From: Crassostrea angulata | Lineage: Eukaryota | Reading direction: 5' to 3' | NCBI RefSeq assembly: GCF_025612915.1 | Contig: NC_069116.1 | Coordinates: 24,707,051 to 24,771,050 of the forward strand | DNA: 64,000 bases | Notes under the pieces: model-generated | Databases searched by the model: none | Told to the model about the DNA's origin: nothing | The model's input: only the letters and a program-made list of their open reading frames with translations | Made by a program: the position numbers and the translations under genes | Shown here: positions 27,939-39,833 of the stretch, piece by piece | Layout of the letters: every line of letters starts with the position of its first letter | Numbering within the stretch: position 1 is the stretch's first letter

Positions 27939-29144
27939 TCATCTTCTCCATAAGACATCGTTTGGCCACGAGAGTCTCTGGTTCAGAGGTAATGGCTGCC
28001 GGGCTAGTACCGGTCGGGTCGGTGTGAATCCATGCCGACTTAAAAAATCAATGATTTCCTGGCCCGCCGGACCCGTTTTGAGCCACATCCATTCCATTAA
28101 CACAGCTCTAACGTCGACGTTTTTGAAGAACTTCTGTCCTCCTTTAAACACCCTGTTCTCATATCCTTCCACGTCCATTTTTATAATTACTTTTTTCAAA
28201 TCAAAACCCGGAAGTTCGAGGAGGTCGTCTAGAGTTGCAGTTTGAACATCGCCATAGCTACCGGAAACACGACTTCCTCTGACTTTGTTTGGGTTTTTGT
28301 CTTTTGCCACAAACGTCCCTCCAATATTGCCTTTATCTACGCCAAGGGACACAACCTCACGGACATCAGACAGAGCATTATATACTAACTGCACATTATC
28401 AAAACGATTTGTTTGTACTGTTGCACACATGCGCTGAATGTTTATAGATAAAGCATCAACTGATACGACTTTCCTGCCGAATTTAGCCACCGCCATTGAA
28501 TATACACCGAGATTGGCACCAAGATCTAAGAACTGCAAGTCTAGATCTTGTCTAAGAAAGGTTAGGACTAGTTCTATGTAACCCCCTTCCCAGGAACCAT
28601 GTTTGTGAATACTATTACTAACGTGAATGTCATTCTTTGGGTTATGAATGAAGATTGGGAGTGACCCAGCCGAAGTTCGAAGAACAGCCTGCATAAATTT
28701 AGGCAGAGCTTTACAAGTGTGATCGTCCCTGGTCCATTGCTGAGCGTTCCTTGCGTACAATCGAAGTATTTGTGGAGCTGGTGTTGTGATAGCCTTTGTT
28801 ATTAGAGAGTTTTGGGTAGAATTTCTAATCGCTGCTTTGATTTTCTGGGCGACAGGTTTTTCAGTTGAAAAACTCCCGTTTCGATTTCCTTTAAATGAAG
28901 TTCCAACACCTTTTTCAGTATTTGGGACACTGGTACTTAATCTTAATTTTGAAACGCTTGTATTTAAATTTTGCTTAGTTTCTTCAGATGTCCCTCCTTT
29001 GAATATTCGGATTCCAGCATTCAATATCGTCTGACCGTGGTGTAACACATTAATATTAGTCTCCTTTTCAATATTGCACAAAAACCATCCAAATGTAAAA
29101 GCACAAATCATCAAAAAGGCTTTCCAGAATTTATCCAATTCCAT
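27939..29144 (-). CDS. FkbM-family (Methyltransf_21) SAM-dependent methyltransferase-domain protein, METTL24-like, type II membrane topology (paralog A, 401 aa)
   Basis: Uninterrupted ORF with an ATG start. The N-terminal hydrophobic anchor is MELDKFWKAFLMICAFTFGWFLCNI. Glycine-rich SAM motif I is IDLGANLGVYSMAVA…VVSVD, and the FkbM signature is KMDVEGYENRVFKGG. It is paralogous to the ORFs at 35913 and 38378. Confidence 0.75.
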   Translation of the reverse strand: MELDKFWKAFLMICAFTFGWFLCNIEKETNINVLHHGQTILNAGIRIFKGGTSEETKQNLNTSVSKLRLSTSVPNTEKGVGTSFKGNRNGSFSTEKPVAQKIKAAIRNSTQNSLITKAITTPAPQILRLYARNAQQWTRDDHTCKALPKFMQAVLRTSAGSLPIFIHNPKNDIHVSNSIHKHGSWEGGYIELVLTFLRQDLDLQFLDLGANLGVYSMAVAKFGRKVVSVDALSINIQRMCATVQTNRFDNVQLVYNALSDVREVVSLGVDKGNIGGTFVAKDKNPNKVRGSRVSGSYGDVQTATLDDLLELPGFDLKKVIIKMDVEGYENRVFKGGQKFFKNVDVRAVLMEWMWLKTGPAGQEIIDFLSRHGFTPTRPVLARQPLPLNQRLSWPNDVLWRR

Positions 29145-30138
29145 TCTATAGAAGCTTCAAGTAACTAATTAACTGACCTAATAAGTTGCAGTTTTAACTT
29201 AGAATTAATTAGATTTCCCAATCGACTTAATCCGAATTGAAACATAATTGAATAGACACACGGCACAACGATTTCATAGTTAAAATGCTGAAGAGATTAA
29301 GTGTGAAAATATCCACTTCCTTGTTAATGTAAAATAGGATACATAGATTTTTCCTTCCAATGATGGCATTTCCGGACGCTTCTTTTTGAAAGAAGACAAG
29401 TGTATTAATGAGGAACACTTGATCACAAAAGAAACTAAACTAAACACAAGGCCACTTACATCGACTAAAAATCCTACAGGGTTAAAATGGATTTAAATCC
29501 CCAGTCATGCTCCGACTTGATTATATATTAACCCTCATTGACCAATCTCTCAAACCTTCTGCCAGTATACCCTTTAAAGCATTCTCCGTTAATTATTATT
29601 GACCCATGCGCTCTTTTCTATGTACAGTCCCATTGTGCCAAACAATAGCGGGGATTATATCAATAGGTATCTACCTGTTGTGTAGCAATTAGATGCCAGC
29701 TAGTTGTATTTGCTATCAACAACTTTCCAAGTATGAACAATTCAATTTCTATCGATTTTTTTTTTACTTTCTGATGATATTTGTCAATTGTTTTTACTTA
29801 TTTTGGAAGCCCTACTCAACATTTTTAAGAGCGAGAAGGTTAGAATAGGTTGTTGCCTGCTGCTGAATCCTATTCAATTTTAAATATAAGTGTAAAATCA
29901 TTTCACTGCTTGGTTTTTTACTTTTCGAAAAACCTTAACCCGTAAATGTGTTGTGTGTGTTTATTTTCTTAAGAATTATTCAATCGTAATCTGGTAATAT
30001 ATAGATCTATAAAATAAAAATCTCGAATAAGGTCTTCATCAAATCGTAGAATTGATTTATATCAATTTTCCTGATGTAATAGATATCCATTCATGAAATG
30101 AAAAGAGAAGAACATGATTTGATTTGTACATATTTTTT

Positions 30139-30304
30139 TGTGTAAATTACACAAGTGGATTGGAAACAAGTTCTTACAACTTACATGTCCCTCTCCTAAT
30201 GATAATATATATACAGTTGTCATGGTATATATTAAGCTTATCATTAGGAGAGGGACATGTAAGTTGTAAGAAGTTGTTTCCAATCCTCTTGTGTAATTTA
30301 CACA
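30139..30304. repeat. Long inverted repeat / foldback (about 66-bp arms, about 34-bp spacer)
   Basis: tgtgtaaattacacaagtggattggaaacaagttcttacaacttacatgtccctctcctaatgataa … ttatcattaggagagggacatgtaagttgtaagaagttgtttccaatcctcttgtgtaatttacaca. This explains the mirror-image ORFs 30062-30283 (-) and 30124-30357 (+). Confidence 0.8.
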
Positions 30305-38377: not shown

Positions 38378-39496
38378 TCATCTCGTTTTTATTAAAGGTT
38401 TTTTCCTCCATAAAATATCATTGGGCCAATTGCCACGGTCCTGAATTTTTAATGGCCGAGGGTTTTGTTCGGGAACATGCGGTTCCATATTTTTAAGTAA
38501 CATGAAATTGATAATTTCTTGCCCAGCGTTTCCGGTTTTAAGCCACTGCCACTCCATAAGAACTGCCCGTACATCGACTTTATCGAAAAATGTTTCGCCG
38601 CCTTTGAAAACTTTGTTTTCATAGCCTTCAACATCAATCTTCATTATCACTTTTCTAAAGTTAAATCTAGGTAATGATAAAACATCGTTTAATCGTATTG
38701 TTTGAACGGTTCCATAATTCCCAACGACCCTACTTCCGATCACTTTGTTGGTATTTTTATCCTTAGCCACAAACGTGCCTCCAACGTTATTTTCATCCAT
38801 TCCGAGTGATACTGTTTCATAGACATCAGAAAATGCATTGTACACAATTTGAACACTATCGGTAAAGTTACCTTCAATCACAGAGGAGCACAATCGCATG
38901 ATGTTCATCGCGAGGGCGTCTACCGCTAGCACTCGTCGCCCAAGCAGGGCGACCGCTAAAGTAAACACACCCACGTTGGAACCAATGTCTACAAAGTGTA
39001 GATCTGGATCCTGCTGTAGTAAGGACAGTATAAGGTTTATATGTTTTCCCTCCCAACTCCCATATCTGATGATTTCCCTGCTAACCCATATATCCTTCCT
39101 CGGGTCATATATATAAATGGTCGTCGAGCCAACATTTGTTCTGAGTTTGGAGCGATAGAATCCAGTGGTATTTCTGCTGCACATACTAGGCTGGACCTTC
39201 CATATCGTCCGATTCCTGCTAAACACTAAATTCCACCCATCGCTGCCTTGTGCTCTGTGCGATAGCTGACTTAAAGTGAAGTGGTTATTTTTTTTATTTG
39301 ATATCATGGTGCGATAGGGCGATGAATTGTTGTGGTAAGCGGTTACATTGCTGAAAACGGCCTCTGTTCGCCGCAGATATAACGCTACAGTTTGTTTCAG
39401 TCTATCCACCGTGTCTTCATAAGTCATAGATGTGAACATGTAGCCAAGACAAAAACCTACAACTAACAGGATGCAAGTTTTCTTTAATCTTGACAT
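38378..39496 (-). CDS. FkbM-family (Methyltransf_21) methyltransferase-domain protein, type II membrane topology (paralog C, about 372 aa from ATG 39496)
   Basis: Signal anchor MSRLKKTCILLVVGFCLGYMF. Motifs are VDIGSNVGVFTLAVALLGRRVLAVD and KIDVEGYENKVFKGG. A tttttttttctttcag acceptor lies immediately upstream of the ATG (the MFFFSFRI of the listed ORF is probably intron/UTR). Confidence 0.7.
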   Translation of the reverse strand: MSRLKKTCILLVVGFCLGYMFTSMTYEDTVDRLKQTVALYLRRTEAVFSNVTAYHNNSSPYRTMISNKKNNHFTLSQLSHRAQGSDGWNLVFSRNRTIWKVQPSMCSRNTTGFYRSKLRTNVGSTTIYIYDPRKDIWVSREIIRYGSWEGKHINLILSLLQQDPDLHFVDIGSNVGVFTLAVALLGRRVLAVDALAMNIMRLCSSVIEGNFTDSVQIVYNAFSDVYETVSLGMDENNVGGTFVAKDKNTNKVIGSRVVGNYGTVQTIRLNDVLSLPRFNFRKVIMKIDVEGYENKVFKGGETFFDKVDVRAVLMEWQWLKTGNAGQEIINFMLLKNMEPHVPEQNPRPLKIQDRGNWPNDILWRKKPLIKTR

Positions 39497-39833
39497 GATC
39501 CTGAAAGAAAAAAAAAACATGTAACAGATGTAAATGTAAATTTCTTTCGAAAGAAAAATTTATAGCAAATTTACAAATCCCCCCCCCCCCCCCCAATTTT
39601 AAATAAAAGGGGCATAACTCCCATATAAAGTCCCAATATGTACAGTAATTTTATATTATATGTCCTTAATAACTTCAAATTTTATAAATCCTGATGAGGG
39701 GATAAGTTGAGTTAGTTGCGCTGACAAGAATAAGACTGAAAATTGTTGCATGGTATTTTTCATTCTTTTCCAATCTTTGTTTCATTAAAGGAAGAAATTG
39801 ATTTTTTTTAAACTCAGTACAGTACACCTGTAT

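Follow-up and report, generated by a model that had tools for sequence, protein, structure and literature searches.

In this study we analysed a stretch of 64,000 nucleotides from the oyster Crassostrea angulata (contig NC_069116.1, positions 24,707,051 to 24,771,050 of the forward strand; hereafter the window), and we describe three tandem minus-strand genes within it, MT_A, MT_B and MT_C, that encode members of the FkbM methyltransferase family. Our results reveal that these are real genes under purifying selection. Their products are predicted, with considerable confidence, to be active methyltransferases that depend on S-adenosylmethionine (SAM) and are either lumenal or secreted. Taken as a whole, the locus may be an ancient, oyster-specific tandem trio of Golgi glycan O-methyltransferases, arranged in the order C-B-A on the minus strand, although we put this complete statement forward as a tentative one. 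A preliminary description of the same DNA had listed three uninterrupted minus-strand open reading frames, and all of them were found where it had placed them, with no internal stop in a sequence check:

27939-29144, minus strand: coding sequence of MT_A, a single open reading frame of 401 amino acids plus stop; the gene furthest downstream in the trio.
35913-36920, minus strand: coding sequence of MT_B, a single open reading frame of 335 amino acids plus stop when counted from the ATG; the middle gene.
38378-39496, minus strand: coding sequence of MT_C, a single open reading frame of 372 amino acids plus stop; the gene furthest upstream in the trio.

The assignment to the FkbM family had been made from motifs, together with a proposal that the Pfam profile PF05050 (Methyltransf_21, the FkbM domain) be searched, and this search bears it out. 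MT_A, MT_B and MT_C match PF05050 with 57.8, 42.3 and 43.7 bits against a curated cut-off of 22.7 (E-values of 2e-15, 1.2e-10 and 4.2e-11, respectively), and all three also exceed the curated cut-off of 37.7 bits for the NCBIfam profile TIGR01444 (fkbM_fam), with 66.2, 53.2 and 52.9 bits (E-value of 4e-18 for MT_A). Over the C-terminal ~275 residues every pair of the three proteins shares 54.9% identity, and the stems in front of this region do not align, in agreement with the similar C-terminal halves and non-conserved stems reported before. Both conserved regions of FkbM proteins, motif I and a family-specific acidic motif with a variable stretch between them, are present in the trio. Motif I takes the forms LDLGANLGV, IDLGTNIGV and VDIGSNVGV, each accompanied by K(M/I)DVEGYEN, and KMDVEGYENRVFKGG, KIDVEGYENRVFKSG and KIDVEGYENKVFKGG match exactly in the window proteins. 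These motifs are present as first quoted, except that motif I begins with L in MT_A (FLDLGANLGVY), and its first position should read (L/I/V) rather than (I/V). Across 189 relatives, the motif I pattern D-x-G-x-x-x-G, the GN(V/I)GG element and the K-x-D-x-E-x-x-E signature are invariant or near-invariant, with D207, G209, G213, K322, D324 and E329 invariant or nearly so. The acidic residue that ends beta-2 is D or E in 189 of 189 sequences, and several further acidic residues are also near-invariant. A search of PDB sequences returned nothing beyond motif-I matches to PRMTs, WbdD and similar proteins.

The proteins also share an architecture. A hydrophobicity scan detects in each of them one N-terminal hydrophobic segment at residues ~5-25, and an AlphaFold model of MT_A, built from a 22-sequence alignment, shows residues 2-40 as a helix, residues 32-123 as a disordered stem and residues 125-401 as a compact domain, with predicted local distance difference test scores mostly above 90 in the last of these. 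The features predicted in this way are as follows:

29070-29126, minus strand: signal anchor of MT_A, residues ~7-25; the top Kyte-Doolittle 19-residue window of the protein, within the modelled helix 2-40.
27942-28772, minus strand: predicted lumenal catalytic domain of MT_A, residues ~125-401; a beta-hairpin sub-domain at its N-terminal end, then a Rossmann-type FkbM core.
36846-36908, minus strand: signal anchor of MT_B, residues ~5-25; Kyte-Doolittle 19-residue mean up to 2.12, with K2 and K8 as N-terminal basic residues.
39422-39478, minus strand: signal anchor of MT_C, residues ~7-25, from the hydrophobicity scan; R3, K5 and K6 before it, E27 and D28 after it.

The modelled domain of MT_A begins with a small beta sub-domain, which in the oyster proteins carries a conserved Trp and a conserved Cys, and continues into a core with the class I Rossmann-type methyltransferase fold, closest to that of a solved FkbM member; the corresponding predicted domains would cover residues ~57-335 in MT_B and ~91-372 in MT_C. 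The layout of anchor, stem and C-terminal catalytic domain had been proposed in the preliminary description, along with the suggestion that it be examined by prediction, and the hydrophobicity scan and the AlphaFold model agree on it. A short N-terminus, a single anchor, a non-conserved stem and a C-terminal domain are together the predicted layout of a Golgi type II protein, and in MT_B and MT_C basic residues lie on the N-terminal side of the anchor. Two further features hint, indirectly, at a lumenal domain. C144 (MT_A numbering), located in the N-terminal sub-domain, is present in 175 of the 189 relatives, and it occurs together with either C240 (101 sequences) or a Cys within motif I, C210 (61 sequences), never both. 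Such mutually exclusive partners are expected for a disulfide, and from this covariation we infer that C144 may form a structural disulfide with an alternative partner, so that the domain would fold in the lumen. The N-X-S/T sequons in the stems of the window proteins, and the sequon NFT in the catalytic domains of B and C, which recurs in the same column in many relatives as NFT or NFS, appear to point the same way.

Comparison with orthologues in other oysters reveals that the trio is conserved in order, in structure and under selection. In Saccostrea echinata the genes stand in the order C-B-A on one strand, each with a single-reading-frame coding sequence (C 1116, B 1008 and A 1203 nt). 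In Ostrea edulis C is followed directly by B, again as single reading frames (C 1173 and B 1011 nt), and in Crassostrea virginica three orthologues lie on one chromosome, two of them with neighbouring LOC numbers. The claim of uninterrupted coding sequences thus holds in this DNA as well as in the Saccostrea and Ostrea orthologues. The ratio of nonsynonymous to synonymous substitution rates (dN/dS) is 0.068 for MT_A against its S. echinata orthologue, 0.07-0.08 for MT_B against the Saccostrea and Ostrea orthologues, and for MT_C 0.22 against a sister species and 0.11 against Saccostrea and Ostrea. With a range of 0.07-0.22 for the whole trio, these reading frames are not chance occurrences. 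In a neighbour-joining tree of 335 columns with 100 bootstraps, which included mussel and scallop sequences, A, B and C each form their own orthogroup with 100% support, each containing Magallana/Crassostrea, Saccostrea and Ostrea members. A and B group together with 95% support, and A, B and C with 98% support, leaving mussel and scallop outside. Because the three fully supported orthogroups each span the oyster genera, the tree indicates two duplications in the stem lineage of the oysters as the source of the trio, which is thus older than the divergence of Crassostrea/Magallana, Saccostrea and Ostrea and has been retained since. The lineage-specific expansion suggested earlier is therefore seen as an oyster-only A/B/C clade (98% bootstrap) among the named mollusc relatives, but it is neither recent nor species-level.

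The trio belongs to a large family. An exhaustive profile search recovered 804 representatives of 50%-identity clusters at E<=1e-30 and 13,648 at E<=1e-10, and the best 150 relatives mostly have the same anchor, stem and domain layout. Those relatives from the profile searches that bear an organism name, a minority, are all molluscs, namely the bivalves Magallana/Crassostrea, Saccostrea and Ostrea among the oysters, together with Mytilus, Pecten, Argopecten, Ylistrum and Tegillarca, and the gastropods Patella, Gigantopelta and Haliotis. Since names cover only this minority, a restriction of the family to molluscs is not proven. Seven relatives of 850-1700 amino acids (P0044, P0045, P0047, P0052, P0075, P0165 and P0096) are modelled with two to five FkbM domains, one of them with a cytochrome P450 in front. 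In appearance these are adjacent genes joined by the prediction software, and they suggest that tandem FkbM arrays are common in other mollusc genomes.

Unlike the coding sequences, the 5' untranslated regions (5'UTRs) show signs of introns. The preliminary description had proposed an intron confined to the 5'UTR from polypyrimidine/AG acceptors close to the ATG, and we found such acceptors 4 nt before the ATG in MT_C and 12 nt before it in MT_B, with a weak one at 1 nt in MT_A. The two stronger sites are:

36933-36952, minus strand: putative 3' splice site of the MT_B 5'UTR intron, TTTTGTTTACATTTACAG followed across the splice boundary by AACGCACCCACG and the ATG; the AG is 12 nt upstream of the ATG.
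39501-39520, minus strand: 3' splice site of the MT_C 5'UTR intron, TGTTTTTTTTTTCTTTCAG followed across the splice boundary by GATC and the ATG; the AG is 4 nt upstream of the ATG.

Both the 12-nt spacing in MT_B and the 4-nt spacing in MT_C are identical in S. echinata and O. edulis despite a synonymous divergence (dS) above 2, and the retention of this spacing while synonymous sites have become saturated argues that the acceptors are functional. For MT_C, two independently assembled contigs of a sister species in the Logan collection, L003 and L004 (92% nucleotide identity), match the window only from the acceptor onwards, and their splicing indicates that the MT_C orthologue is expressed. 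The first ~126 nt of these contigs found no match in the window in a short-word BLAST search, and the first exon of MT_C was not located there. Because neither contig has an in-frame upstream ATG, the intron of MT_C belongs to the 5'UTR and contains the ATG at 39520. The mechanical open reading frame of MT_C extends to this ATG, but we rejected it as the start of the protein, since it falls within the acceptor's polypyrimidine tract and the orthologues begin at the downstream Met. The mechanical reading frame of MT_B extends past its ATG to a TTG at 37049. The proposal of an intron in the 5'UTR only thus stands for MT_B and MT_C, where the acceptors are conserved and, for C, spliced contigs exist, but not for MT_A, whose acceptor is weak and not conserved in Saccostrea. 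No spliced transcript for MT_B was seen. The same-species Logan contigs L001 (A) and L005 (C) and the O. edulis contig L168 (B) are colinear with genomic DNA and are therefore uninformative on splicing.

Some further observations concern these transcripts. The spliced 5'UTR exon (nt 1-132 of L003 and nt 1-128 of L004) holds out-of-frame upstream ATGs, and upstream open reading frames are possible there. Both contigs are recorded with a 388-amino-acid product, but its start is a GTG picked by a gene caller of prokaryotic style, and the apparent N-terminal extension is not real. For C. virginica, three N-terminal isoforms of the C orthologue stand in RefSeq (365, 372 and 373 amino acids), and some models of this species may take in coding sequence further upstream. 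One same-species Logan contig breaks at a (GA)n/(CT)n microsatellite, at 39834-39885, which is ~340 nt upstream of where MT_C starts.

The three genes have been catalogued before. MT_B is identical to XP_052717550.1 of Crassostrea (Magallana) angulata, and MT_A is 99% identical to the representative of a cluster that holds the UniProt entry K1QRE5 of Magallana gigas, labelled 'Methyltransferase FkbM domain-containing protein'; these two matches identify the window as Pacific/Portuguese oyster DNA, Magallana (Crassostrea) angulata/gigas. MT_C is 96.8% and 98.1% identical to the Logan proteins P0017 and P0018, respectively. Exact-sequence look-ups of the window proteins gave no encoding contig, and near-identical cluster representatives were used instead. 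The trio is already in RefSeq and UniProt under the names 'uncharacterized' or 'FkbM domain-containing' protein, and no papers on these three genes were found in the literature searched. A tblastn search detected no fourth copy or fragment of the genes within the window. The three proteins are new, automatically annotated members of a known enzyme family, and their interest lies in being easily tested candidates for a step of invertebrate glycobiology, not in any unusual sequence feature. The 90%-identity cluster of P0018, a C-type protein of 398 amino acids, also holds B-type proteins of 335 amino acids, including the exact MT_B sequence. This content is odd because B and C are only ~55% identical. 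It is probably a clustering artefact, which chimeric or merged contigs may have produced, and the member counts of clusters of this type are not usable as evidence of expression of a single gene.

The FkbM family is chiefly bacterial and viral and the coding sequences of the trio are intronless, which raises the question of whether the genes were acquired recently from bacteria or a giant virus, or whether the assembly is contaminated by bacteria. One close relative, P0248, even carries a bacterial name: its record, on a 1.7-kb contig, reads 'MAG: FkbM family methyltransferase [Candidatus Thiodiazotropha sp.]' and places it in a metagenome-assembled genome. Thiodiazotropha, however, is a symbiont of clams, and since the protein clusters with mollusc sequences, the contig most likely came from the host and was binned with the bacterium. 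Among 185,579 prokaryotic species genomes (one per species) and the IMG/VR viral collection, the best matches to the trio are only 23-33% identical and cover the core domain alone. The content of guanine plus cytosine in the trio equals that of the surrounding oyster DNA, the genes have splice acceptors and a spliced 5'UTR, and their synteny is kept across oyster genera. On these grounds we reject recent horizontal transfer and bacterial contamination, either of which is extremely improbable. The difference from bacterial FkbM enzymes (PF05050/TIGR01444), such as the solved protein 2py6 of Methylobacillus flagellatus and the prototype FkbM, the FK506 31-O-methyltransferase, goes beyond this low identity. 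The bacterial enzymes are soluble and cytoplasmic and act on polyketides or cell-surface sugars, whereas the oyster proteins add an anchor, a disordered stem, the beta-hairpin sub-domain and the covarying Cys pair. The deep origin of the family may lie in vertical descent, shared with METTL24, or in an ancient transfer.

An intronless coding sequence could also suggest retroposition, and the trio might then represent decaying retrocopies, or pseudo-enzymes without catalytic activity that bind, for instance, carbohydrate or SAM. We consider this very unlikely. The SAM-binding and family-signature residues are invariant or nearly so over the 189 members, the dN/dS values given above are low, and the tandem arrangement, the conserved 5'UTR introns and the synteny among oyster genera are unlike what is seen in dispersed retrocopies.

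Vertebrate METTL24, an uncharacterised PF05050 protein with an N-terminal signal sequence, offers another point of comparison. Like the trio, it is an animal FkbM-domain protein of the secretory pathway with no assigned function, but it is single-copy, in contrast to the hundreds of divergent mollusc members. The trio could accordingly be viewed as molluscan co-orthologues of METTL24 that descend vertically from an old bilaterian secretory FkbM-domain protein, with the expansion reflecting ordinary turnover and the function being that of METTL24. The shared PF05050 domain fits this view, and so does the lack of any close bacterial or viral relative, which favours long residence in animals. In addition, some bivalve transcripts are reportedly labelled METTL24 (PMC12652611). 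RefSeq, however, names the oyster members 'uncharacterized protein' and not METTL24-like, the named relatives from the profile searches are molluscs without exception, and the A/B/C clade is oyster-specific. Moreover, the function of METTL24 is itself unassigned, so the view would explain little. We regard it as distinctly unlikely.

What do these enzymes methylate? O-methylated sugars are a hallmark of the glycans of molluscs, nematodes and some other invertebrates, and lectins of innate immunity target them. In oysters, the histo-blood-group-like antigens that retain noroviruses bear such sugars. For the trio, we propose glycan substrates as a candidate role, one that we consider possible and no stronger than that. 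The N-glycans of Crassostrea gigas and O. edulis carry O-methylated deoxyhexose, hexose and N-acetylhexosamine, including 3-O-methyl-N-acetylgalactosamine (GalNAc) and 2- or 4-O-methylfucose, and the positions of the methyl groups differ between the species (PMC10301044). The same paper reports methylation that varies with the tissue. A 2023 paper (PMC7614267) described the enzymes of animal glycan methylation as unidentified, and no animal glycan methyltransferase characterised since then was found in the literature searched. In Ostreococcus, an FkbM methyltransferase encoded beside sugar-modification genes has been proposed to methylate glycans (PMC5082852). Three points thus suggest a glycan substrate: oyster N-glycans are methylated, the enzymes responsible were described as unidentified, and FkbM proteins have been tied to the methylation of sugars in other organisms. 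More broadly, a role in the methylation of glycans or small molecules, as first suggested, is a candidate in view of the architecture, the family precedent and the oyster glycome.

In the mechanism that we propose, each protein would start with a short N-terminus in the cytosol and continue through a signal anchor and a disordered stem of low conservation into an FkbM methyltransferase domain that lies in the lumen and depends on SAM. The proteins would reside in the Golgi, as type II glycosyltransferases do, draw on SAM imported into the lumen, and O-methylate sugar residues of glycoconjugates passing through the secretory pathway. A, B and C would differ in the acceptor sugar or in the hydroxyl position that they modify. 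In its widest and somewhat doubtful form, the proposal is that the trio and the wider mollusc family are the long-sought animal Golgi glycan O-methyltransferases. The trio would then give rise to the regio- and sugar-specific methylated GalNAc, fucose and hexose of oyster N-glycans, and to epitopes that shape binding of noroviruses to histo-blood-group antigens and recognition by lectins specific for methylated sugars.

Several known systems bear on this proposal. Rhizobium NoeI, an FkbM-type enzyme, catalyses 2-O-methylation of fucose in the Nod factor, and RfbT/WbeT of Vibrio cholerae (PF05575), also FkbM-type, methylates the O-antigen. They illustrate a fold able to O-methylate fucose and other sugars, although a link between NoeI and FkbM was not found in the literature searched. 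Both act in the cytoplasm on lipid-linked or soluble precursors, in contrast to the oyster proteins, which are modelled for the Golgi lumen. In Caenorhabditis elegans, Golgi glycan methylation has been defined genetically by samt-1, a putative SAM transporter, as cited in PMC7614267. Such a pathway requires SAM-dependent methyltransferases in the lumen, and the oyster proteins have the architecture expected of them, but the nematode candidates given in that paper contain other domains, such as DUF268, and not FkbM. In chlorovirus PBCV-1, domain 3 of A064R and A061L are the 2-O- and 3-O-methyltransferases of the N-glycan rhamnose (PMC9614988). These experimentally demonstrated class I SAM methyltransferases each modify one hydroxyl of a terminal glycan sugar, and they set a precedent for several regiospecific enzymes serving one glycome. 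They differ from the oyster proteins in being viral, cytoplasmic and free of a membrane anchor, and they are not known members of PF05050.

A number of observations weigh against Golgi-resident glycan methyltransferases. The charges that flank the MT_A anchor do not clearly obey the positive-inside rule, and MT_A may instead have a cleaved signal peptide and be a secreted enzyme. The proposed disulfide, and with it this part of the argument for lumenal folding, is drawn from covariation. None of the three window proteins matches PF05575, the RfbT family, even at E-values up to 1, and weak or sub-threshold matches to it occur in long multi-domain relatives only. No glycan-related genes neighbour the trio, as those seen are actins and an mL44-like gene in the window and, at the Saccostrea locus, a gene for a B-box protein, and no fusion to a glycosyltransferase domain was seen among the long relatives looked at. 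The one P450-FkbM gene model would, if real, point to small-molecule chemistry. The size of the family (the 804 clusters at E<=1e-30) far exceeds the handful of known methylated sugars, and many members must therefore have other or redundant substrates.

Some of these points lead to the main rival, in which the lumenal or secreted methyltransferases of the trio act on something other than glycans, for example on small molecules or lipids that are produced or detoxified within the secretory pathway, or on secreted proteins like those of the shell matrix or mucus. The prototype FkbM methylates a hydroxyl of a polyketide, and it is chiefly from natural-product pathways that the family is known (TIGR01444 description), and the excess of family members over known methylated sugars and the P450-FkbM model are in keeping with substrates of this kind. 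A clam transcript with an FkbM domain responds to Vibrio challenge (PMC9125321), which fits defence chemistry as well as glycan remodelling. However, Golgi glycan-modifying enzymes share the layout of type II anchor, stem and lumenal domain predicted here, oysters make three kinds of O-methylated sugars for which no enzyme was found in the literature searched, and the P450 fusion, like the multi-FkbM 'fusions', most likely results from the merging of two neighbouring genes by the predictor. We therefore judge non-glycan substrates to be somewhat unlikely and retain glycan O-methylation as our working proposal. As candidates, the three genes are short, intronless and easy to clone, and each has clear orthologues in all of the oyster genera examined. 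Even with a substrate other than a glycan, knowing what these genes do would establish the activity of lumenal methyltransferases that form a large family across molluscs, and it might also shed light on vertebrate METTL24.

The remainder of the window contains four tandem actin genes, recognised with the Pfam actin profile:

10667-11662, minus strand: actin gene, large-exon open reading frame.
13954-14973, minus strand: actin gene, large-exon open reading frame.
18837-19862, minus strand: actin gene, large-exon open reading frame.
23043-24056, minus strand: actin gene, large-exon open reading frame.

All four reading frames start at position ~43-45 of the actin profile, which implies an upstream exon. 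These actins are unusually divergent, the other three being 71-76% identical to the first copy, and the copy at 23043-24056 has an aberrant C-terminus in place of GPxIVHxKCF and may be a pseudogene or a divergent actin-like gene. At ~52576-55067 on the minus strand, short open reading frames resemble exons of a gene like that for the mitochondrial ribosomal protein mL44. The profile PF22935 (RM44_endonuclase) matches at 54831-55067 with an E-value of 0.068, which is below threshold, and the other fragments were recognised by eye. In a non-exhaustive look, the actin reading frames and the mL44-like exon fragments are consistent with the earlier remark that the other genes of the window are multi-exonic.

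Several repeats are also present. Between MT_A and MT_B, at 32199-33302, lies a 24-bp minisatellite with the consensus TTACGATACACTTATAGCGCTCCT (~46 copies, 84% matches), which yields long spurious open reading frames of the LYDTLIAL and KERYKCIV types on both strands. Two tandem-repeat blocks, at 45434-45951 and 49285-49700, give repetitive open reading frames in several frames on both strands (PQCRPQGLSGF, SVPSVPTSGSLRV and TEETLRDPEV). Because the minus-strand reading frame of the first block and the plus-strand reading frame of the second share the ending QCRPQVLSGFSQCHSGFPQGFLIVSGFFHYS, the two blocks resemble copies of each other in inverted orientation, separated by ~3.4 kb, and may mark the two ends of a mobile element. 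Further (GA)n/(CT)n microsatellites are located at 30861-30967, ~48050-48120, ~48690-48750 and ~57776-57808.

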